DNA of 64,000 nt from Narcine bancroftii. Lineage: Eukaryota. The DNA lies in the NCBI RefSeq assembly GCF_036971445.1, contig NC_091470.1, forward strand, positions 354,206,001 through 354,270,000. Direction: 5' to 3'. Shown here piece after piece: positions 18,971 to 61,469 of this stretch. The notes under the pieces are model-generated. The model made no database searches, had not been told where the DNA came from, and saw only the letters and a list, made by a program, of their open reading frames with translations. Within the stretch, counting starts at the first letter, position 1, and each line of letters opens with the position of its first letter. The position numbers were made by a program, and so were the translations under genes.

Positions 18971-21580
18971 TGTGGTCAACCACCGTATATGTATTTAACA
19001 GTCTGGGCATGCCCAATGGCCGAATGTACCTGTGGCTCATCCCACAGAATCCTAAATAAAGGAGACTGTTCCACAGCCCCCTCCCCAGTTCAGGACAGTT
19101 GACCAGCATGGATGTGCCTCTAATCAATTGTGAATGAAAGCCTGTCAGTTTGACGAAACTTACAGTCTTTTGGAGTTACTGATGGTGCATCAATTATATT
19201 CACAATAAATTTTGACATTGGAGCAGATCCTGAAGCCGGTGAAGTTGGATAATTGACCCACAATTGCCTGAAACCTCCAAGAACTTCAACCTCTGGCTGC
19301 GCTGCGTTGCTTCGAAGTGTTCCTGCAGGCATCATCTGCCATTGTCCGATCAGAGAACGACAAGCTGCAGGCACTACGCTCCTGGATTGGGCTCCTAGTA
19401 TACTTAATGATCAGGGTCACCACGGCATACCCAGAAGCAATGGACTTTCTGAAAAGCCAGTAAGTGAAGAAGATAAATGAGGTCTACGTGAGACACCTCC
19501 TGGCCACCCACAAACAGTGACTCAGGGAAACCAAAAACTGAGCCTTACAAACTCAGACGGATCTGCAATTGCAAGGCCATAATGGCCACAGAGAACAAGA
19601 AGGACCTGTTTCTTTCTTTTAATCGACTTAGGGAAAAATTTGGAATACCATTTAATTCTTTATTTGTGCATTATCGAGTTTGTGCTTTAGTTAGAGATGA
19701 TAATTTTGGAAGAGATATGAAGCTACCTGAATTAACAAAGTTTGAGTTTTTTTATTTCGCAAACACTAAAAAAGGTTTTATTTCTGATATATACGCTTTG
19801 TTACAAGATAGTATGAATAAACCAAATTTAAATAAATCTAGAAATAAATGGGAAGAAGTTTTATCTTATGATATACCTCAGGAGGATTGGGAGATTTTGT
19901 CAAGATGGGGTGACTTAACTTACTTAATGTAAGATATAGTTTAGTAAATTATAATTTTTTTTTACATCAACCGTATTTGACTCCTGAGAAATTGAAAAGA
20001 TATGGGTTTAATAATTCGGATTTATGTTTCAGATGTGGATCACAAACTGGAACATTTTTACATGTAGTTTGGCTTTGTGATAAAGTTCAAACTTTTTGGG
20101 GAAAAAAATAATATTTTTAAAAATTATTTAGAATTAAATGCTGCCATCTTGCAACCGAACACATGAACTCTCCATCAACAATTACTGACATCAACCCAAC
20201 ATTGGCCTACACCATGCTGGATCAAGGTAGTCCTCACCAACTCACCAGATCAATGATGGACGTCCCGGTAAACAGCCACATGATGAACTGTCTGTTCAAT
20301 AGTGGGTGCAAGGAGAACTTCATCCACCCGGACACAGTGCAGCACCACTATCTCAGTTAGGCACCACTATCTCGAAGTCCCATACACCTGATGTAGTAAC
20401 CCTATGGAGGTTATGGAGCACAGACTACAAAGACTTTAAACTTCTGATGTCACAGCTATGCACCGCTATGCTACTGGGATCAGACTTTCAATGCCACTTT
20501 AAAAGCATGATGAAGGAGTACGATTCCCCTCCGACCCCATTCACTGTCTGTATCCAGAAGTTCTTAAATCAACCACTGCGCTCCACCAGCAAAAAACCCC
20601 AGCTGTCCCCCCCTCCCTCTCCGTTTCCAGCCAGCAACCAGTAGATTGCTCAGCAGACTCTCGACCCTCAAGATCACCCTTCCACCACTGTTCGTTAACC
20701 TCACCCCTGAATGCAAACCCGCTGCCATCAAAAGTAGGCAGTACAGTGCTGGGGGCAAGGCCTTTATTAGGTTGGAGGTGCAACAGTTACTCAATGCGGG
20801 GATCATTGAAGCCAACAACAGCCCTTGGAGAGTCCAAGTGGTGGTGTGAGCAATGGGGAGAAAAACCAGGATGGTCATGGACTACAGTCAGACTATTAAT
20901 AGATATACACAGCTGGACATGTTCCCTCATCCCCAATATCTGATATGGTAAACCAAATTGCGCACCATTGGCTTTTCTCCACCATCGAGCTAAAGTCAGC
21001 ATACCAGCAGCTTCCCATCTGCCCGGAGTACCGCCAATATATTGGTTGAGGCAGATGGCTGCCGCTACCATTTCCTGAGGGTTCCCTTCCACGTCACCAA
21101 TGGGGTCTCAGTCTCCCAGTGGGAGATGGACCAAATGGTAGACCAGTATGAGCTGTAGGTCACATTCCCTTATCTTGATTTGTGACCATGACCTGCTGAA
21201 CCATAACACCAACCTCCAAAAATTCCTCCAGACTGCCAGACTCCTTAACCTCACATACAATAAGGCTAAATGCATATTTTGCATAACCCACCTTGCCATC
21301 TTTGGCGGCACCGTGGAGAACACAGCCATTGGCCCCAACCCCGATTGCATGCTCCTGCTTTTGGAACTCCCCCTTCCCCATAGCCTCAAAGCCCTGAAAA
21401 GGTGCCTGGGCTTCTTGTACTACATGCCCAGTGGGTCCCCAATTGTGCGGTCAAGGCCTGACCCCTTGTTAAATCCACCTCCTTTCCCTTGGTACCAGTT
21501 GCATCAAGGCAGACATTGGTACAGCTACGACGCACGCCATGGATGCAGGTGCAGAACGATGCGCCCGACTGCTCTGGCTG
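18971..21580 (+). mobile_element. Decayed Ty3/Gypsy element A: 5' LTR 18971-19192, gag, protease, RT; 3'-truncated
   Basis: TG...CA LTR; gag EQILKPVKLD; protease NCLFNSGCKENFI; RT NAGIIEANNSPWRVQVVV, DHDLLNHNTNLQKFL; interrupts a Penelope-derived repeat whose halves lie at 18935-18970 and ~21590-21630. Confidence 0.8.
19600..20140 (+). mobile_element. L1-clade ORF2 C-terminal fragment inside Gypsy A
   Basis: AT-rich; SFNRLREKFGIP, KWEEVLS, LCFRCG..GTFLHVVWLC (CCHC). Confidence 0.7.
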
Positions 21581-30290: not shown

Positions 30291-32380
30291 TGAAGAGTTA
30301 TGATTTGCTGCAGGTTTGGCAACTTCATTTAATTATTCCAGTGAACTGGGATTCACTGGTAGTGTGTGGTGTTGATGGCTGGCTCCACCCCCATCTGCTC
30401 ACATACAAGCCTGGCTTCCCACCTAAACCCAGAATGCTTCTGAAGACTATGGTGAAACCCTGCCCATAGTTATAAGCTAATAAAAGTGCTTGTTCTCCCT
30501 CCTGTTGTGAGAGCTTTTATTCGCACTACCATTTTATTAGCTCATTCCCTAAACGATGGAAGTTCTACTCAAGCCTGGTACATTGCTGATAGACCCTCTG
30601 TCCCCCGACGCGGCTGAGGAGTTCATGTACTGGCTGGACTGCTTCCAGGCCTACCTGAATGTGACCAGAGACGTCTTCCACACTAGTTTCAAGGGTAGGA
30701 ATGAAAGGGTATGCAGTCATCAGGGACTGCACTACATATGATGCTGCCATTGAGGCTTTGAAGGCTCAGTACCTGAAGTTGCAAAATGAGGTCCTAGCGA
30801 GGCACTGACTTGCTCTACGTCGCCAATGGCCAGGAGAGACCATTGATGACTACCTGCTGGATCTGTGGACTCTTGCCAAGAAGTGCAGGTACGAAGCGGC
30901 TACGGGCCGCATTCGTGAAGAATGGATCCAGGACATTCTAGTCGCAGGGGTCCAGGTACATGAGGCAGCGACTACTCAAATTGGGTAATGTCCTGGCTAG
31001 CCACGTTGAACTGGCCAAATGTTTGAACAGGCCAAGCTTGAGAACAACAATCTTGAAGCCAGACCCAGATGACAACTTCCAACACAAGCTGCTCCTGCTA
31101 CCCAGCCCTAATGGCTGCTGCTTCCCGTGCCAGGGAGCGCTTCTGTGCTAGGAAGTACTTTCCCCACTCTCGTTGCCCAGCATTTTGTAAGGGTTTGCCA
31201 CACGAGGGGAAGCCCGGGAAAGTCTAAGGCCTGCACTGCTCCCGGATCAAATTCCAGCCCCAAGCCATCTGCCCTGAATTTACCCGAGCCCACTTGCTGA
31301 GCTACACGCCGACAGGGGGTAGCAGTGAGGTGACTGTGCATAAAGGCTCAGCTGCCATCTTTCCGCGACCCAAATTCAACTCAGCGCCAACATCGTCAGA
31401 GGAGGAAGGGGGGGCAGGCATCTAGCCATGCCATGAGGCTGACTCCATCTTACCCACACAGAGCAATCCAGGACGGTGGGGGCCACTCGAGTGAGGAGTA
31501 TGGAGTCTCCAGGGTCCTAGTCTCAACAGTCCTAGATCAGGACAGTCCTCACCAGCTCAGCAACTCTATAGTGACTGTGAAGGTAAACAGACATTTTACT
31601 AAATGCCTAATCGACAGACTCTACTGAAAGCTTCATAAACTCACGGACTGTTCAAGAGTACAACCTAAAGATGTATTCTTCCAATTATCACATATTCCTT
31701 GCGTCTCAGTCACATTCTATGTGTATTCAACAACATTGTATAGTACATCTGTCGTTTGAGGGTGGTGGGGGAGGTGAGTTCTGTAAATTTCGCCTGTATA
31801 TACTTGATGAATTGTGTTCTCCGGTGTTATTGGGTCTGGATTTCCTGTGTCATCTTAAAAGTGTAACCTTGGAGTATTCTGGTCACCTCCCCTTTAATGG
31901 TTTGGAATGGAGGGACCCTAAAGTCAGAATCCACATGCAGCCTCTCCACACTGAATATCAACGCCGCCCCCACCCCTCTTCCCGAATCTGTCCTCGGACT
32001 GCAAACCTATTGGTATCAAGAGCAGCAGGTACAGTGCAGCAGACTGAGATGTCATAAAGACTGAGACGCAATGTCTGTTCGACAAATGTATAATCGAATC
32101 AATCACCAGCCCGTGGTGAGTGCAAGTAGTTACGGTAAAAAGGGAAAACGAATCCAAGCTAGTAATTGACTATAGCCAAACTATTAATCGTTACACACTC
32201 CTGGACGCATACCCCCTCCCTCGAATTTCGAAAAAGGTGAATGATATTGCACATTATCGGGTCTATTCAACCATCGACCTGAAAGCTGCTCATCATCAGC
32301 TGCCAATCTGTTCCGAGGACCGTCCATATACGGCATTTGAGGCTTTATACGGCATTTGAGGCTAACAGTAATCGCTATCA

Positions 32381-34714
32381 CACAAGATCACAAGATAAAG
32401 GAACAGAAGCAGGCCACTAGGCCCATCGAGTCTGTTTCATGACTCTACATTAAGCTGAACTATGCTCACACCTAGTTCCAATTTCCAGCCTTTTCCCCAT
32501 ATCCCTTGATACCCTTACTAATGAGATACTTATCCATTTCCTGTTTAAATACTCCCTGTGATCTGACCTCCTCTGCTTTGCGCAGCAGTGAGGTTCCACA
32601 GATCCACGACCCTCTAACTCACACATGTCAAACTCTGGCCCGCGGGCCAAATTTGGCCCGCGATATAATTATATTTGGCCCGCAAGAATATTTCAAAAAT
32701 GTATTAGAGGTGGCCCGCCCTGCAGCGAGAGCCGATGCTGTTTTTTGGTAACGTCACCCCCACCATCTTCCCCCTTCATTGCACATCCTTCCCCATTGTA
32801 ACACGAGAAATTGTAATACGAGAAGTCTGTCGATGTCATCAGCCGGCAAGCCAGTTGGAAGGCTCCCCGCACAACTAGTCACTTCTCTCACGTGTCAAGC
32901 GGTGTGGCGGATGGACGAGTGCCTGTGATTTCCTGTCGGCGCGACGGGCATGGCAGGCTGCGCACGGCCCCCGGGCAGCGCGAGCCCCGCGTGACTGGCA
33001 CCGGACGGCCCTTCCACAGCGCGAGCGCACTTCTCCCGGTCGCCACGGCCTTCAGCGCTTGCACCCGCGCGGACCCCAGGGACGGCTGGTTCGGCCCTGC
33101 ACGTGAAGAGAGAGATGGTGGCTGTCCGCAAAGGCTGATTGGCAGCGCACTGGGCCTGAGTGGGTGGGCAAGCAGGGGTGGGCAGATGGTGTAGGTGAGG
33201 AGTAATGGGCAGGGGAAGCTATGGTGGTGCGAGGGGCAGTTAGAGGGAGGGATGAGTAGAAGGAGGGGTGGATAGGGAAGAGGTAAAAGGGGAGGGGCAG
33301 GGCGAGGAGGGGTGATTAGAGGGTGAGAGACAGATAGAGGGAGGAACAGGTTGAGGGGAGAGGCAGTAGAGGGGCATGTATAGGATGGGGTGGGTAGAGG
33401 CAGAGCAAGTGGAGTGAGGGGTGAGTAGAGGTTGGTAAAGGACTGGTCAGGTAGAGGGATGGTGGGTCGAGGGTGAATAGAGGCCTAGAGCCTGAGGAGT
33501 GAGCAGGAAATGCTGAGTCCTGATGCAGGCCAAAATGGACACAGCCTGTGAATGCTGACTACATCTCCACAGGGACCAAATATGTTTCCCTCAGGTCAAG
33601 CAAAGGGTGAACTTGAGCTACCTACTCCTGACCTGTAACTTTATCCTCCTAAAGTTATATCCTAAAGTTTAACATTACATATGTTGAAAGAAGAGAAAAC
33701 ATGCAGATGTTGTTGAAAATTTTCAATAAATATTTAGTTCAGCCCTCGACTTAGTCCAAGTTTTTAATTTTCATCTTCCGTGAATTTGAGTTTGTCACCC
33801 CTGCTCTAACTAAAGAAGTTCTTCTTCCTCTCTGTTTTAACTGGATAACTTCTAATTTTAAGACTATGCCCCTTTGTCCTCAATTCACCCATCAAGGGAA
33901 ATATCTTATCTACATTCACTCCGTCAAAACCTTTCAATATTCAAAATGTCTCTATGAGATCTCCCCTCATTCTCCAATGAATAGAACCCAAGACCTGCAA
34001 AAACACTCCTCATACATTAGCCCTTCCATTCCAGGAATCATTCTGGTAAATCTCCTCTGCACCCTCTCCAACATCACATCCTTCCTAAGATAGGAGGCCC
34101 AAAACTATACACAGTACTCCAAATGGGGTCTCACCAGTGCCCCATAGAGCCTCATTAACACCCCTCTTCTATTATACACTATTCCTCCTGAAATGAATGC
34201 TAGCATAGAATTTGCCTTCTTCACTCCCGATCCCCCCAGGGCATTAACTTTTAGATGACTCTGCACAAGGACGCTCAGGTCTCTTTGCACCACCGAGGAT
34301 TGAATTTTCTCCCCATCCAGATAGTTCTCTGCCTGTTTATTTCCACGGCCAAAATGTAGAACCAAAAACTTCTCAACATTGGGCAAAATTATGGCAGATG
34401 AAGTACAGTCTCCCAATCTGTCTACATCCCTCTGCAATTTTATGGTTTCTTCAACACTTCCTGCTCCACCACCTATCTTAGTGTCATCTGCAAATTTGGC
34501 CACTAAACCATTCATTCCATAATCCAAATCGTTAATAAAAATTGTATACAGCACTGCCCCCAAGACCGACCCCTGCAGAGCACCGCTTGTTACAGGCAGC
34601 TATCCTGAATGGAATCCCTTTAATTCAACCCTTTGCTTTCTGCCTATCAGCCAATTTTCTATCCAGTCTAATAGCACTCCTATAATTCCATGGGCCCCCA
34701 TTTTATTTAGCAGC
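32381..34714 (-). mobile_element. CR1 LINE 3' fragment inserted in Gypsy B RT (split by a hAT element)
   Basis: FINDLDYGMNGLVAKFADDTKIGG...LVRPHLEYCV; tail (tcttgtga)n at left; ctatca repeated at 32375-32380 and 34715-34720 (candidate TSD). Confidence 0.85.
32620..33803. mobile_element. Non-autonomous hAT (Charlie/OC1-like) element, 1184 bp
   Basis: Perfect 8-bp TSD CTCTAACT (32612-32619, 33804-33811); termini cacacatgtcaaactc / gagtttgtcacccctg; subterminal ggcccgcgggcc. Confidence 0.85.
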
Positions 34715-35098
34715 CTATCAATTCTGGAGGGTCCCTTCCGGTATCACGAACAGGGTTTCTATCTTCCAGAGGTAGCTTGTCAGAATGATAGATGAGTATG
34801 GGTTGAAATCTACCTTTCCCTACCACAATAATGTCACCATCTGTGGCCATACCTTGGAAGATCATGATACCAACCTCCAAAGTTTTCTCCATGCAGTGAA
34901 AGCCCTAAACCTTACTTATAACTCTAACAAGTACATGTTCAGGACTAAACATCTGACTTTCCTTGGCTATGTGATGAAGAATGGCATCATTAGCCCCGAT
35001 CCTATAGGATGTGCCCCCTGTTAGAGCTCCCCGTGCCCAGGACTACAAAGACTTTGAGGACATGCCTGGGGCTTTTCTCATATTACACCCAGTGGATA

Positions 35099-37647
35099 TC
35101 TCTTTCTTTTCCAATCTTTTTATTATTATTATAATTTATAAACACATACAGTTCAAAGAGATATGAAAAATACATAGTAAATAATGAATTAATACAGAGA
35201 TATTGAACAATAATATTGCAGAATAAAAATATATCATAAAAAAAAATTTTTAGATCAGTTTAGAGTATGAACTATCTCTAAAAAAAATGATATAATTAAT
35301 AAAAATATATAAAAAAAAGAGAGAAAAAAAACCCACAAAGGAAGAAAAAACAAATCTGAATTAAAAACTTTAAAAAAAAATACCTACCGATATAGCTAAA
35401 TCACGCCGATCATTCCAATCTCATCTAACAGCCCAATTATCATACATAATCATAAAAAGAAAACAGAGCCAGATCAACTCACCACAAATGAAAATATTGA
35501 ATAAATGGTCGCCTGGTTAACTCAAACTTAGAAGGGGATTCATAGACAGAGTTTCTAATTTTCTCTAAATTTAAACATAGTATAGTTTGGGTAAACCATT
35601 GGAAAACAGTGGGAGGATTAACCTCTTTCCAATTCAATAGTATAGATCTTCTAGCCATTAGTGTAAAGCAATCATACGATCCGCAGGAAGAGATAAATAA
35701 GTCAAATCTATCATAGGTAATCCAAAAATTGCAGTAATGGGATGTGGTTGTAAATCAATATTCAAAACGGTAGATATAATGGAAAAAATTTCCTTCCAAT
35801 AATTCTGTAAAGAGGGACAGGTCCAAAACATATGTGTAAGGGAAGCTATTTCCAATTGACATTTATCACATATAGGATCGATATGAAAATAAAAACGATG
35901 GAGTTTATCTTTAGACATATGAGCTCTATGAACAACTTTAAACTGTATCAGTGAATGTTTTGCACATAGAGAAGAGTTTACCAGTCGCAGAATTTTATTC
36001 CAATTTTCATTGGAAATATGAAGGTTGAGTTCTCTTTCCCAATCATTTTTAAACTTTCCAAAAGTCCCAGAATTTATTTTTGTAATTATATTATATAATT
36101 TAGATATTACACCTTTTGGAGGGAATTTTGAATATAGTATATCCTCTAAAACAGTCGTAGTCTCCCGATTGGGAAAAGAGGGTAAAGTCGAAACTAAGAA
36201 ACTCCTAATCTCCATATATCGAAAGAAATGAAATCTAGGTAAATCATATTTCATGGATAATTGTTCAAATGACATGAAAGAGTTATCCAAGAATAAATCC
36301 GAAAAGCATGTTATACCTTTAACTTTCCAGAGTAAATAAGCTTGATCAATTAGAGAGGGATGAAGAAAGAAATTTAGTACAATAGGGGTTTCCAAGATAA
36401 AATGACTTAGGCCAAAAAATCTCCGGAATTGAAACCATATACGTAGTGTATGTTTAGCCATTGGATTATCAATTAGTTTATATAGTTTAGTAAGAGTAAA
36501 AGGGAGAGCAGCTCCCAAAATAGAGCTAATTGAGAAATTTTGTACCGGTTTAATTTCTAAATTTACCCAATGGGTCTTATAGACCAATTTCTTTGTTGAA
36601 TGTTGATTCTAAGATCTTCTCTAAAATTCTAGCGACAAGGTTAGAGAAGATATTACCATATATTATCTCTGAAGACCAGACTGGATTCATTAAAAATCAT
36701 TAGTCCTCCTTTAATATTAGAAGATTGATGAATATTATTTACACCCCTTCACATAAGTCCTCAGAATGTGTTATTTCATTAGATGCTGAGAAGGCCTTCG
36801 ACAGAGTAGAATGGCCTTATTTATTTACAGTTCTTGAAAAATTAAATTTTAGTCCAATATTTATATCTTGGATTAAACTTCTTTATAATTCCCCAGTTGC
36901 CTCGGTTTTTACTAATACTCAAAGATCGCCATATTTTCGATTATTTTGGGGCACCAGGCAAGGGTGCCCCCTTAGCCCTTTATTATTTAACTTAGCTTTA
37001 GAACCTTTGGCAATTGCTATCAGAGAAGCACCCAATATTACTGGTATTATTCGTTGCAGGGATATTCATAAAGTATCACTATATGCAGATGATTTATTGC
37101 TATATATTTCCAATCCTGAAAATTCTATTCCTGCAGTTTTATCTTTATTAGCCCAATTTAGTAATTTTTCGGGATATAAACTGAACTTAAATAAAAGTGA
37201 ATTATTCCCTTTTAATGGATGGGTTCCTATTTATGATAGTTTGCCTTTTAAAATAGCTAGAGACTATTTTATATATTTAGGGATTAAGATTACTAAAAAA
37301 CATAAAGATTTGTTTAGGACTAATTTTTTCCCTCTATTTGACCAATTGGTCACCATTATCCCTATCTATGATAGGCCGAATTAATGCTATTAAGATGATG
37401 ATCTTACCTAAATTTTTATATTTATTCCAAGCTATACCTATTTTTGTTCCTAAATGTTTTTTTGATAAGCTTGATTCTAAATTGTCTTCATATAACTGGC
37501 AAAACAAGAATCCTAGATTGGGAAAAAAATATTTACAGAAATCTAAACTGGAGGGAGGATTGGCATTACCCAACTTTAGAAATTATTATTGGGCAATTAA
37601 TATTAGTTACTTAAGGTATTGGTTGAATTATTCAGAATTATCTCTAA
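35099..37647 (-). mobile_element. 5'-inverted (twin-primed) L1-clade insertion
   Basis: Minus segment ~35099-36575 is the ORF2 C-terminus (CCHC) plus 3' UTR; plus segment ~36575-37647 is the RT core ([27 protein letters not shown]); 14-bp TSD ACACCCAGTGGATA. Confidence 0.88.
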
Positions 37648-39734
37648 ACACCCAGTGGATAACTCATTAAGTTAATAAGGTTTGCCCTCTCTTAAAAGCC
37701 ACTATTTTCCTCCACTTGGCTTTTAACTACCTCCAGAACCACATTGCAAAACCCATCATGTATGTGGTGGATGAGGATGTAACTTTCCAAGTGGAAAGCA
37801 ACACTTTGGACGTAGCCCTGGCCGCTACCCTCAATCAGGGCAGGCTGGTTGCATTTTTTCCCCTCACATTACAAGGCCACGAGCTCCAGAACCCATCTGT
37901 GGAAAAGGAGGCTCAAGCCATTGTAGAAGCCATAAGGCACTGGAAACACTACCTGGCATGTAGGAAATTTACACTCCTCACGGACCGGCGCTCGGTTGCA
38001 TTCATGTTCAATAATGTCAAGAGGGGAAAATCAAAAATGACAAGGTTGCTAGGTGGTGGATCGAGCTCTCCACCTACAATTATGACATTGCTTATTGGTC
38101 AGGAGCTCTTAATGACCCTCCAGATGCCATACCCAGAGGAAGCTGTACCTTTGCACACACTAGCCAACTGAGGTCTATGCATAATGAGCTCTGCCATCCA
38201 GGGGTCACCTGCATGACTCATTTTGTCAAAGTGTGCAATCTGCCCTACTCCATGGAAGACGTCAGGGAAATGATGAGGTCTTGCCAGGTCACTTCTACTG
38301 CCCCACAGAGGCGCATCTGATCAAGTCATCCTGGTGCTCTCCCATCCACGAACAGGAACATTTTCTTCCTCTCTATCACTGATGAATTCTCCCACTTCCC
38401 GTTCGCCATTCCATGTCCAGACACACCCACTTTGTCAGTCATAAAAGACCCTAGATTCCATTTTCACCCTGTTCGGATATCCCAGTAATATTCATAGTTA
38501 TCTGGGCTCATCCTTTATGAGTGACGAGCTACGTCTGTACCTGCTGGTGAGGGGTATCGTGTCCAGCAGTACTACTAGCTACAACCCCTGGGGGAACAGG
38601 CAGGCTGAAAAGGAGAACACCACGATCTGGAAAGCTGTCAAACTGGACCTGAAGTCAAAAGGTCATATAGACTCATGCTGGCAGGAAGTCCTTCCTTTGG
38701 TCTCCATTCCATCTGGTCTCTACTTTGTACCACAACCAACGCTACTCCTCACGAAAGAAGGTCGTCATCGGGAACTACACTCCCAACCTGGCTCAATACA
38801 CCTGGTCCAGTCCTTCTCAGAAAGCACGTGAGAAGAAGCAAGACCAACACCCTGGTGGAAAAGGTGAAACTGCTCCACGCCAATCCCACGTATGCCTATG
38901 TGGAGTACCCGGATGGCAGGAAGAACACAATCTCCATCAGGGACCTGGCACCCACCAAACAGAGTGTCCATTGCTTCAAGTGCCCTGCAAGCCACAGAGC
39001 TCATTCTCACCGAACCCAGTCAGGGCCTCAGGGGATCCAGTTCAGAAGGAAAGTGCATCCTCCTCTGCCGTTGAGCTGGAAACCCAGCCTGCTTCTCCTC
39101 CCTTGCAAGGGGACTATGAGACCCAAGGAGTTCAAGGCCCCCCAGTGCTAAGGCGCTCCACCAGGATCTTCAAACACCCGGACCACTTAAATTTGTAAAT
39201 AACTATTTTTTTTTAAACTTCTTTTCTGAATCCTTGTTCTCTGTCTTCATTCAGATCCTAAATTCTACAGGAAGGTGAATGCCGTGAAGTGGGATTCACA
39301 GGTAGGGTGTTGGCTGGCCCCATATCTGTTCACATAAAACCCTGGTTTCCTGCTAAAAGCCAGAACCCTTCCGAAGACTACTGTGAGACCCAACCCATTG
39401 TTATAAGCTAATAAAAGCATTCGTTCTCCATCCAGTCATGCGAGCTTTTATTCGCACAAAAGCCTACATCCACTGCCAATGAATAACTGATATGGTTGAG
39501 CTTGCTCTGAATATACACAAATGGCTGATCTGAATCTCATCAGTATCTGACTAGATTATGAGCTCCATACAAAGGAATGTGACTAAACCACTTATCTTGC
39601 ATTGACCTGACCAACAGTAAATTGACTTTCTGTCATTGCTCTTAACATGACTTGCTCAATGTTTCTCTACAGCAAAGGTAAATAACTTGCCTTATCTTAA
39701 TTCAGTCAAGTTAAAGAGACCTTGAATTCTTCCA

Positions 39735-50787: not shown

Positions 50788-51991
50788 CAGTGATTTTCAA
50801 ACTTTCTTGTTCCACTCACATACCACCTTAGTAATCCCTGTGCCATAGGTGTTCTGTGATTAGTAAGAAATTGATTAAGGTGGTATGTGGGTGGAAAGAA
50901 AATGTTTGAAAAGCACTGTTTTAATCATACCTCATTGACTCGTTATGTGCACAGTTTCATAACTCCAAAGGAAATGGGCCAATGAGAATTTTTCTCAAAG
51001 TATTTCAGTAACAATTGGGTCTAGAGCAGTGGTTTTCAACCTCCCTTTCCCCCCCCCCCCCACCCCCACCAACCACTCACATAGCATTTTAAGTAATCAT
51101 GGAACATCTACGGCATAGGGATTACTTAAAATGCCACTGAGCTCAAGGTCCCCATTCCTGCCCAGAGCCCCAGGTCCACGCCCCTGCTGCTGATGACACT
51201 CTCACTGATGACACCAGGACAAGAGATTCTTCTGACCGCTTGTGCCTGGGAGACAGTGGCATGCAGTTTGAGAGGGAGAGTTGGAGAGAAAAGTCAATAG
51301 GGGAAGGTAAAGAAGAAATGGAAAGAGAGAGAGAGTTCCCTGAAATGAGGACGATCATCCTTCTAATTTCATGTCAAGTGAATTTTTTTTTTCCAACCTA
51401 TGAGGTCAGTTCTGCTCCAAAAATATTTTGGATAAATAAGGTTTTCTGATTATTTTTTTTTGGCTATCCTCATTTATCCATTGTTTTTTAAAAAAATTTG
51501 GATAAATGAGTATTTCAGAGAACCCCATTTTGGATAAGTGAGGATTTCGGAGAACCCCGTTTCGGATAAGTGAGGATTTCGGAGAACCCCGTTTCGGATA
51601 AGTGAGGATTTCGGAGAACCCCGTTTCGGATAAGTGAGGATTTCGGAGAACCCAGTTTCGGATAAGTGAGGATTTCGGAGAACCCCGTTTCGGATAAGTG
51701 AGGATTTCGGAGAACCCCGTTTCGGATAAGTGAGGATTTCGGAGAACCCCGTTTCGGATAAGTGAGGATTTCGGAGAACCCCGTTTCGGATAAGTGAGGA
51801 TTTCGGAGAACCCCGTTTCGGATAAGTGAGGATTTCGGAGAACCCCGTTTCGGATAAGTGAGGATTTCGGAGAACCCCGTTTCGGATAAGTGAGGATTTC
51901 GGAGAACCCCGTTTCGGATAACTGAGGATTTCGGAGAATCCCATTTCAAATAATCGGAGCTGTACTGTAAGGAAAAGTTTGAAAACCACCG
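50788..51991. mobile_element. Second, inverted copy of the composite hAT MITE; right TIR displaced to 51971-51991 by an ~840-bp insertion
   Basis: Spacer 50919-51027 is the reverse complement of 50006-50116; orphan aagtttgaaaaccaccg after the tandem array. Confidence 0.65.
51500..51947. repeat. Tandem array, 14 x 32 bp (GGATAAGTGAGGATTTCGGAGAACCCCGTTTC)
   Basis: Exact 32-bp periodicity; inner copies near-identical, first and last degenerate; abuts a Tigger-like terminus taatcggagctgtactg|TA. Confidence 0.95.
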
Positions 51992-53328
51992 TTCTAGATC
52001 TCTTTCATTCACTCACTCCTCTCCCAATTAATAATCACCTCAGCGATTGTTCAACTTGATGCCTTTGTTAAATAGTAAGGGCATCAGCGGGCCTGGAATA
52101 AGTGCTGGAAAATGCCGAGTAAATAATCACCCCTAATCAGACTGAATGGCAGAGCTGTCATGAGGGGCAGAATAAGCTGCTCCTGTCTCTATTTCTTTTT
52201 TTTGAATATTTTTATTTTGATTTTCCAAGACTCACACAAATCCAAAACAATAATCTTTCTCAACAATGATACCTTTTCCCCCACCCATCTCCCCTCCCCT
52301 CCCTACATTAATGCTGCAAGGAAAAGATTATGTAAATCAAAGAACCAAAAATCTATAGTCACAGACTCTTAAAGGAACCAAATATAAACCCAGAGTAATA
52401 GAAAGTAAAGTGAAAACGATATGAAACAAGAGCACGTCACCTGCTCCCGACCCACTTCATTTATCTCAGTCGTTCCACTATTAGTACAGAGTTTTACCTT
52501 TCTTCTATATAGAAGGGGTGTAACTATATCTGCGTACCTATGTGTTGCAGATAAGGCTGCCATGCCCTAACAAATGTGTCATCTGTCCTTAAATTGAAAG
52601 TGATTTTCTCCAGGGGAATACAACCTGCAATTCCATCGTGTAATGTTTAGTTGGGAGTCGGACTTCCACGTGACCGTTATACACTTCCTGGTTACCGCCA
52701 AACCGACCTTCACAAACTGAATTTGGTATTTGAACAATTTAAAACACTCGTCCGTGTTTCCCAGAAGGTACAATTCTGGATCCTGTGGAAAAGGTGACCG
52801 CCTTTGTCATTTTTTTTCAGAATGTCTCCCAAGTCTTCCCAGAAGGATCTCTCCTTTGTATACAGTCAAGCTGAATGGATAAAGGTTCCAATCTCCACAC
52901 CACATCTGAAGAACATTTCTAAAATTTGATTTAGATTTATGTAATTTTTATGGTGTGAGGTACAGTTGATGCAGGAAATTGTATTGCACCAACCTGCACC
53001 TGGCATTAATAACTGCTGTCATGCTGTCCAGACATTGATTGTTGTAACCAAGTCCATCTCCCACCTTTCCCTCGACCTGTGTAAGTCCAGCTTTGGGCCC
53101 TCACTTTGGAATAGGAGATACACCATAAAGATGAATTTATGTGTATTCCCCTTTCAAATTAGAATTTCCATGTTACTACACACGGACAAGGCCATAGATG
53201 GACCCAAATTATGCCTTAAGAAAGATCTTAGTTGGAGATAGCAGATGTCAGGATTTCATTATCCAGATTTATGAGTATTAATTTATTCTGGTTCAAGAGC
53301 ACTTTAGGAAACAACTCCACCTTTATTC

Positions 53329-60045: not shown

Positions 60046-60682
60046 GGGGGAAAGGGAGATTTACAAAAAAAGCGAGCATTTTTGCCTCATTTCTCTTCTC
60101 TCCAGCCAATCTGACCAGCCAGTCGGAAGTCCACCCTGTGTTCGATGTGTGTTTGCCAGACCATAGCTCAGGTTTTTTTAAAATTAAGACCAGAAGCAGC
60201 AATGCAACTTCTGGTCCTTTTTGATGGAAGTCTCACTGATCCGAAACCTGCTCCCAGATACCACCCAGTCTGTTAAGCATTCATGCCATTTCCAGGAGAA
60301 GCATTCATCTGTCATACCTGCTAGCCCACAATCCTCCGTGCTGATTGCACATCACCTTGGTGAAACGGTGTAAACTACCTGACACCATTGCAAGCCTTCA
60401 AAGGCATCCATCGACCCTGCAAAATTGCCTTCATGTTCTTGGTATTTCTTCTTTCAAGACACACCTGAATCCACTTCCCCTACCTTTCAGGCAGAAGAAA
60501 CCTTGGAGACGTTAACTCAGTGACTGGAACACAAGGTCTTCAGGCGCCGGAGCCCCCCACCCCCCCCCCTTTCTTTTATGCCAGTTGTCCTGCTACATGT
60601 ATCTCCGTTGATAATTGCTACTTTCTCCACCAATGGGAGCGGTTCTCTGCGACTTACCTTGTCACGTGACTTGAAGATGTTT

Positions 60683-61000
60683 TTTTCTTTTCCCACCCTC
60701 CTTCCTTCCCCCACCCCCTCCTTCCTTCCCCCACCCCCTCCTTCCTTCCTTCCCCCACCCCCTCCTTCCTTCCCCCACCCCTCCTTCCTTCCCCCACCCC
60801 TCCTTCCTTCCCCCACCCCTCCTTCCTTCCCCCACCCCTCCTTCCTTCCCCCACCCCCTCCTTCCTTCCTTCCCCCACCCCCTCCTTCCTTCCTTCCCCC
60901 ACCCCCCTCCTTCCTTCCTTCCCCCCCCTCCTTCCTTCCTTCCCCCACCCCCCTCCTTCCTTCCTTCCCCCCCTCCTTCCTTCCTTCCCCCACCCCACTC
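60683..61000. repeat. Polypyrimidine compound repeat (CCTT)n/CCCCACCCC
   Basis: ~320 bp of almost pure C/T on the plus strand, so G/A-rich on the LAMA1 sense strand. Confidence 0.95.
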
Positions 61001-61469
61001 CATGCCTATTTTTTCCCTGGTTAATTATCATATTTTGGCAAAGTGGAGTCTTTTCCCTCGTTCATAAGACATTTGAAGCAATTTTTTTTAGCCTGCATAA
61101 TTATTCCACTAAACTGGAATTTCAACTCGACTCTTTTGCTTTTCCTGATCTGATCCTTATCGAACTTCCCCTGATGAAGTTACCCAGACAAGACTGACCA
61201 GCAGATTCTCATCTGTCCACACCCATCCCCAATTGGTGGCTCGTTTACACACATTTTTTTTAAAAAAACAAGCCACATTCTTGAACATTAATGCAAAATG
61301 CAATGTCACAAGTGTTAAAAAGTGTTCCTCTCTCTTTGAAGCCCAGAGAGCACGGGCCAAATCTTTTTGTCAGTACATGGACAGGCTTGAATGGGAGTTT
61401 CCTGCGCTTTGAAATGCATGGATCCCAAAGAAATTAACACCCACCCACCAAGAGGCTGAGTTTTGAGAA

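Follow-up and report, generated by a model that had tools for sequence, protein, structure and literature searches.

A fold-back complement at the primer-binding position of a Gypsy lineage without chromodomain suggests tRNA-independent self-priming

Self-priming of reverse transcription has been described for the Tf1/sushi group, whose members are chromoviruses according to the accessible text of PMC4600332. For Tf1, the accessible part of PMC7175516 reports that the RNA's first 11 bases pair with its primer-binding site (PBS) and that cleavage by RNase H falls between bases 11 and 12. The Tf1 cDNA carries a copy of the PBS at its 3' end, and the primer is copied into PBS DNA (excerpts of PMC11042837). 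Furthermore, a three-duplex 'pretzel' is described for Tf1/sushi elements, in which extra stems adjoin the primer duplex (PMC10085805, accessible passages). Self-priming is also predicted for the plant lineages Tcn1 (Gypsy) and TAR (Copia), based on an LTR complement of at least 10 bp that begins 0-5 bp past the 5' LTR (PMC6317226, available text). It is regarded as characteristic of Tf1/sushi chromoviruses and of some few lineages in plants.

The lineage studied here shares with Tf1/Tf2/Tj1 and Tf1/sushi elements that there is no tRNA site and that an LTR arm is complementary to the PBS position. Its member element B also falls under the complement rule used for Tcn1 and TAR, but lineages and hosts are different, i.e., Tcn1 groups with Tf1/sushi and TAR is a Copia lineage in the available text of that study. 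A TGG site is likewise missing in Skipper of Dictyostelium, which has a polypyrimidine tract that is not complementary to the LTR (PMC5006619), and in fungal GalEa and bivalve TRIM elements, whose hairpins are placed within the internal region by the accessible part of PMC6934838. In contrast to these elements, the PBS position of our lineage pairs with its own LTR.

An earlier note on this DNA had regarded the arrangement as a candidate for an undescribed mechanism. Self-priming itself is described, as outlined above; for a non-chromodomain animal Gypsy lineage, no report was located in the literature searched, which was mostly without subscription papers, Repbase and GyDB. If true, a large non-chromodomain animal lineage would represent a further origin of self-priming, or a much older one.

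Element B and its lineage

The window, i.e., the whole analysed stretch of 64,000 nt from Narcine bancroftii, contains on its plus strand a decayed Ty3/Gypsy LTR retrotransposon (element B), recognisable by its LTRs, polypurine tract and gag-PR-RT-RH-IN order. Its 5' LTR (30337..30530; 194 nt, terminal dinucleotides decayed in the window copy) is followed by a broken gag-pol (30556..38956) with gag from 30556, protease at about 31620-31892, RT at about 31970-32344 and 34710-35098, and RNase H plus integrase at about 37650-38956. The polypurine tract (39269..39279) adjoins the 3' LTR (39280..39461), which shares 78% identity with the 5' LTR across 147 nt; a duplication of the target site was not seen around the element. 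Two inserted blocks interrupt pol (window about 32380-34700 and 35100-37650), the second of which holds frames of 316 aa (minus strand) and 226 aa (plus strand). Family B is abundant in the 3.3 Gb host genome (4,400 candidate copies, 40 scored), and its uninterrupted copies measure about 4.2 kb with LTRs of 194 nt.

Full-length relatives encode gag-PR-RT-RH-IN in a single frame. The best named homologues are shark and ray proteins, and the named matches of the lineage come from a tunicate, a psyllid, sharks and rays. That no chromodomain is evident, as stated in the earlier note, held: PF00385 was found in none of the 120 homologues among the matches listed and in 0/3 full-length proteins scanned, compared to 38/64 in a sushi-like comparison set. 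The lineage also differs from Tf1/sushi in its RT-RNase H sequence, with about 30% identity to 20 fish chromodomain elements. In a quick Gypsy tree, the 41 rows of the lineage are set apart from the chromodomain rows (n=20; 99) and from 6 integrase-first ones. The phylogenetic placement proposed earlier suggests a branch apart from the fish chromoviruses, with an unreliable root, a single long-branched BEL row and no fungal or plant chromoviruses among the references; five short rows (L110, L137, L037, L038, L046) were left out. The outgroup search of the host with PF24626 and PF17921 mainly returned integrase-first elements and one sushi-like copy. The Ty3 RT scores 296 bits against a fish chromovirus and 204 bits against this lineage. 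By domain order, integrase before RT (as in Gmr1-like elements) was not observed within the lineage.

The lineage may correspond to the Cigr-1 clade ('Gypsy-Cigr'), which comprises non-chromovirus Gypsy elements from tunicate, molluscs and annelids in the accessible text of PMC6238403 and PMC8556966, or to another named clade. Two lineage peptide motifs had no match in the searched supplement files of these two papers, and Cigr-1-related terms had none in PMC2774666 and PMC2577118. A viral contig collection contained no relatives among 25 pattern matches, and a protein atlas returned generic Gag clusters only. Members of the lineage were also found in prokaryote genome bins (L131-L138; P0023), one of them annotated as a bacterial DDE integrase; these are likely host contamination. 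Besides the lineage, the host genome contains an abundant family with integrase before RT (Gmr1-like) as well as a decayed chromovirus of sushi-like type (L150-L163, L149 group).

The complement at the PBS position within and across families

Immediately downstream of the 5' LTR, TTTTATTAGCT (30532-30542) is exactly reverse-complementary to AGCTAATAAAA (30475-30485) within the LTR of element B. This confirms the 11-nt complement claimed by the earlier note, which begins 1 nt after the 5' LTR. The LTR arm, i.e., the putative self-primer, spans 30472..30485 with AATAAA inside (30479-30484), and its complement at the PBS position spans 30532..30545, where the window copy is mismatched at 30543. 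Between them lies a loop of 45 nt (30486..30530; rest of R plus U5), in which a predicted stem begins directly after the arm. Pairing sets the arm's 3' end opposite the base adjoining the LTR, which is the orientation required of a minus-strand primer. The LTR end at 30530 is given by the flanks of other copies and by the 3' LTRs, which diverge there; CA is found at this column in 26/30 family B copies.

Next, we consider conservation among genome copies. In 30 family B copies, which were retrieved with a query including the fold-back site and are thus family members by construction, the perfect run is 14 nt in 17/30 and at least 11 nt in 21/30, while the remaining 9 show scattered single mismatches. 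The offset of the complement from the LTR end is 1 nt in 25/30. None of the 30 has TGG in the first 8 nt past the LTR, and no TGG PBS was found in 20 family A copies. That is, both the complement and the lack of a TGG/tRNA PBS noted for element B hold across copies. Within dinucleotide shuffles of the LTR, 11 nt is reached once in 20,000, and 11-nt complementarity occurs at 15 of 9,100 window positions; the fold z-score of element B is -3.5. Comparing the post-LTR bases with host tRNAs, as suggested by the earlier note, gives a longest match of 4 nt within a partial set of 28 distinct tRNA sequences (14 anticodons).

The loop of element B includes cttttatt (30514-30521), which had been proposed as a competing partner and is indeed present in both LTRs, but its hairpin is seen in family B alone. 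When R-U5 is folded alone, the hexamer is unpaired at 0.20 in one natural copy vs. 0.82 in the window copy. The hairpin was rejected as a general switch because it was not seen in other families and leaves the hexamer open in the window copy.

Another family of the same lineage is represented in the window by element A on the plus strand (18971..19207 from LTR start to PBS position). It shows the fold-back with a different arm sequence: its 5' LTR (18971-19192) contains an arm at about 19126-19139, and its PBS position (19194-19207) forms its own 14-nt pair. Element A is truncated (window 18971-21560). In family A, whose copies are older, pairing of at least 11 nt is found in 10/20, and in the young family C (open frames of 1,400-1,500 codons) 28/30 copies pair over 13-16 nt at offset 1. 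Family C (L185-L214, L248-L253) has 240-nt LTRs, with 5-bp target duplications in at least 2 copies.

To go beyond the host, a homologue alignment (n=33) was used to fetch 80 metagenome and 8 genome-bin loci. A gag start was present in 43 of these 88 loci, 5 of which were skipped in the LTR-end analysis; L061 and L064, skipped at first, were returned by hand to the comparison of 28 family representatives. For families with the LTR end fixed by the 3' LTR or flanks, the complement measures 10-19 nt in 10/10. Including rule-set LTR ends, it is at least 10 nt in 21/25 families compared to 4/600 cross-family pairs; among the four families scoring below 10, three have one mismatch or wobble and one has a mis-set LTR end. 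Based on a fixed 11-nt window at offset 1, 23/28 representatives pair 11/11 and 5/28 pair 10/11, with 3 LTR ends set by hand (L061, L064, L131) and 16 by a rule requiring pyrimidines after CA. Cross-family pairs reach at least 10/11 in 37/756 and 11/11 in 3/756.

The 28 representatives have 27 distinct arm sequences, i.e., the covariation across subfamilies that the earlier note had in view is found. Three or four different Watson-Crick pairs are used across families at arm positions -9 to -5. Most arms end in AATAAA, ATTAAA or a near variant. Arms with neither AATAAA nor ATTAAA are nevertheless paired (L051-L054, L057, L085, L094, L099, L137), the clearest being L094 (ends ACAAAT; 12 nt) and L099 (ends TGAAGA; 15 nt). 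In one locus (L056), both LTRs show an arm change without compensation. Judged from these sequence comparisons, the fold-back is a trait of the whole lineage, not of one copy, and self-priming of the lineage would explain the failure of PBS finders on such elements.

In predicted folds, the cis duplex has a probability of 0.95-1.00 in 28/28 representatives, and a stem starts at most 2 nt from the arm end in 22/28. Compared to the 'pretzel' of Tf1/sushi, the lineage is thus predicted to have the central duplex and an adjoining stem. A duplex with the downstream leader is not general across the 28 predicted folds; the lineage's leader of 15-45 nt is too short for the downstream duplex of Tf1. 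Further differences to Tf1 are the duplex length, which is 13-19 bp in most families and not 11, and the arm itself, which coincides in part with the poly(A) signal and by prediction lies internally. Two further observations concern single members: protein P0013 contains, between Gag and protease, a tandem repeat rich in Ala/Thr, and in L085 (130-250) the LTR end and PBS position are tandemly doubled ahead of gag.

Covariation was also studied within a single family. Family D comprises 70/110 host loci, of which 51 are anchored; most of the 19 without anchor motif are visibly paired still. For arm positions -6 to -14, 402/459 cells are paired in the 51 anchored copies, while 2,000 shuffles yield a mean of 301 and a maximum of 328 and slid registers pair at 18-39%. 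We find 8 different perfect 13-nt haplotypes, and 84/118 minor arm letters are still paired. Pairing ends sharply past 14 bp (3/51 paired at -15). Comparing 42 nearest neighbours, which are on average 0.117 apart, gives 19 double changes with pairing and 3 without, compared to about 8 double changes in total expected under independence. Changes on one side alone are also frequent (37 in the arm, 31 at the PBS position), as expected from decay. The arm's 5' half shows a variability of 0.26 (vs. 0.05-0.29), which is similar to that of the least constrained LTR parts and no greater than that of other loose ones, and the idea of a hypervariable arm was thus dropped.

This coordinated turnover favours priming over masking of the poly(A) signal alone, since slow change of both sides would be expected for a hairpin kept by selection alone, whereas a primer is recopied into the PBS position each cycle. 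The frequent one-sided changes and the uncompensated change of L056 count against this reading. Coordinated turnover within a family would allow a primer to be told apart from a mere hairpin by sequence alone.

Predicted RNA start, masking and priming

Promoter motifs were picked by eye. Relative to the arm's 3' end, a TATA-like motif is located at -83 (family B), -85 (A) and -85 (C), and an initiator-like A at -55, -53 and -52, respectively; the LTRs of these families have only short matches in common. For element B, this corresponds to a predicted TATA-like box at 30403..30408 (decayed in the window copy) and an initiator-like site at 30429..30433, with a predicted start near 30431, which lies 55 nt upstream of the 3' end of the arm. 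Among anchored family B copies, the TATA-like motif is found at -82/-83 in 18/24 and the initiator-like site in 19/24. Family D shows a similar but closer layout, with the TATA-like motif at -76 to -80 (34/41 with motif), which misses the range predicted in advance (-82 to -86) by 2-6 nt, and the initiator-like A at -45 to -48 (27/28). The spacing between both motifs is 28-33 nt in the four host families. Given these motifs, the RNA of the host families is predicted to begin 45-55 nt upstream of the 3' end of the arm, which is 30-40 nt upstream of the paired arm. The earlier note had considered that the complementary segment might be the RNA 5' end; for the arm in these families, this is probably not the case.

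With an upstream start, AAUAAA would be transcribed in the 5' LTR too. The hexamer is predicted to be unpaired at 0.00-0.01 with the leader and at 0.50-0.99 without it, and masking would be specific to the 5' LTR because the PBS position exists behind that LTR only. In HIV-1, which is tRNA-primed, the AAUAAA of the 5' LTR is placed in the stem of the poly(A) hairpin; this hairpin is local and found at both ends, whereas the partner strand in our lineage is the PBS position. The 5'-specific poly(A) switch put forward in the earlier note as an alternative to self-priming is, based on folding predictions, likely a second function of the same duplex and does not stand as an alternative of its own.

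We favour, with a probability of roughly 0.55, self-priming in cis from an internal arm with an RNase H cut at its last A and masking of the 5' AAUAAA as second job. According to this model, the RNA would begin 45-55 nt upstream of the 3' end of the arm, which places the arm ~40 nt inside the transcript. The arm would pair with the PBS position over a loop of 45-60 nt that opens with the stacked stem. The element's RNase H would then cut after the terminal A run of the arm, as in Tf1, yielding a primer of about 50 nt with its last 14 nt paired. RT would copy the loop, with transfer by means of that part of R which lies between cut and poly(A) site. Plus-strand synthesis would copy the arm back into the PBS position, such that both sides could change together. 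AAUAAA would be hidden at the 5' LTR and exposed at the 3' LTR. With a long primer, copying would have to be stopped to give the sharp limit at 14 bp, which is a point against this model. If it is internal and overlaps AAUAAA, poly(A)-site choice would be tied to priming within one RNA switch.

Over all its forms, tRNA-free self-priming is very probable on the sequence evidence: the missing TGG site, the conserved register and the covariation support what the earlier note had suggested. Self-priming is also the better supported main function compared to poly(A) masking, because of the fixed 1-nt register, the arms without canonical hexamer in some families and the coordinated turnover.

The geometry might instead be exactly that of Tf1, i.e., the RNA begins with the arm as its first 10-14 nt, and the TATA-/initiator-like motifs farther upstream are no working promoter. 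This is in accordance with an A at -11 in 18/28 and a G at -10 in 25/28 representatives, a pyrimidine followed by a purine at -12/-11 or -11/-10 in 20/28, the 11 bases used by Tf1 (PMC7175516, accessible part) and the 14-bp limit in family D. On the other hand, a start at the arm needs a TATA-like motif located 34-46 nt upstream of the end of the arm, which is found in 0/28 representatives. Together with the regular motif spacing farther upstream in the four host families and duplexes beyond 11 bp in most families, this makes a start at the arm unlikely for the lineage as a whole. It may apply to the non-host families, which have a TATA box at neither distance; at -92 to -78, one is found in 4/28 representatives, three being host families, and this counts against an internal arm outside the host. 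That is, primer geometry may differ within the lineage, with the A at -11 and G at -10 of the non-host families fitting an 11-nt terminal primer.

Complementarity, register and covariation are explained equally well as with the internal cis primer if the arm acts in trans, i.e., if the PBS position anneals with a short RNA that terminates at the 5' LTR, or with the 3' R copy of a second genome, which is then trimmed to the arm. The overlap of arm and poly(A) signal in most families would suit such an origin, but the cis duplex predicted for all 28 representatives would block a trans partner and the stacked loop stem makes sense in cis only. Given Tf1 as a precedent for cis priming, we consider trans priming improbable.

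If the duplex merely hid the 5' poly(A) signal, with priming done by something else, one would expect the hexamer at the arm end of most families and the 5'-specific masking predicted above. Such a function does not need the fixed 1-nt register, and it leaves the element without any primer site, as no other exists. Furthermore, the ACAAAT and TGAAGA arms of L094 and L099 still pair, and covariation extends to bases 5' of the hexamer, so we regard masking alone as quite improbable. Finally, a host-RNA primer (tRNA half or other), for which half-tRNA priming in Copia lineages (PMC6317226, available text) and the coverage of the tRNA comparison (28 sequences, 14 anticodons) could be brought forward, or an AT-rich chance match is largely refuted and hardly credible, given 27 different site sequences that each match their own LTR, the 4-nt tRNA match and the shuffle result.

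The YxDN reverse transcriptase and further observations

In 89/110 homologues with readable motif (P0001-P0120, among the matches listed), the RT motif is YxDN and not YxDD, which is another difference to Tf1/sushi. YxDN is also present in young copies with 99-100% identical LTRs; further YxDN loci are L248-L253 as well as L052, L054, L058, L078 and L080. For Ty1, the accessible text of PMC2148107 reports that the D211N mutant polymerises but shows no transposition unless rescued by RNase H changes. Young lineage copies with Asn at the second catalytic Asp would be the natural counterpart of this mutant, as far as it is described there. Within the literature searched, no paper matched YLDN together with retrotransposon.

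Tentatively, and at less than even odds, these observations can be combined with the internal cis primer: a widespread non-chromovirus animal lineage would have evolved its own tRNA-free priming, in which a 14-bp duplex hides the 5' poly(A) signal during transcription and then, once cut at the last A of that signal, provides an internal, capped primer of ~50 nt, the pair drifts freely via recopying, and the polymerase is naturally YxDN.

Apart from elements A and B, the window contains a tandem array at 51401-52040 (32-nt unit, copies 96-97% alike) and a looser one at 60648-61014 with units of about 20 nt.
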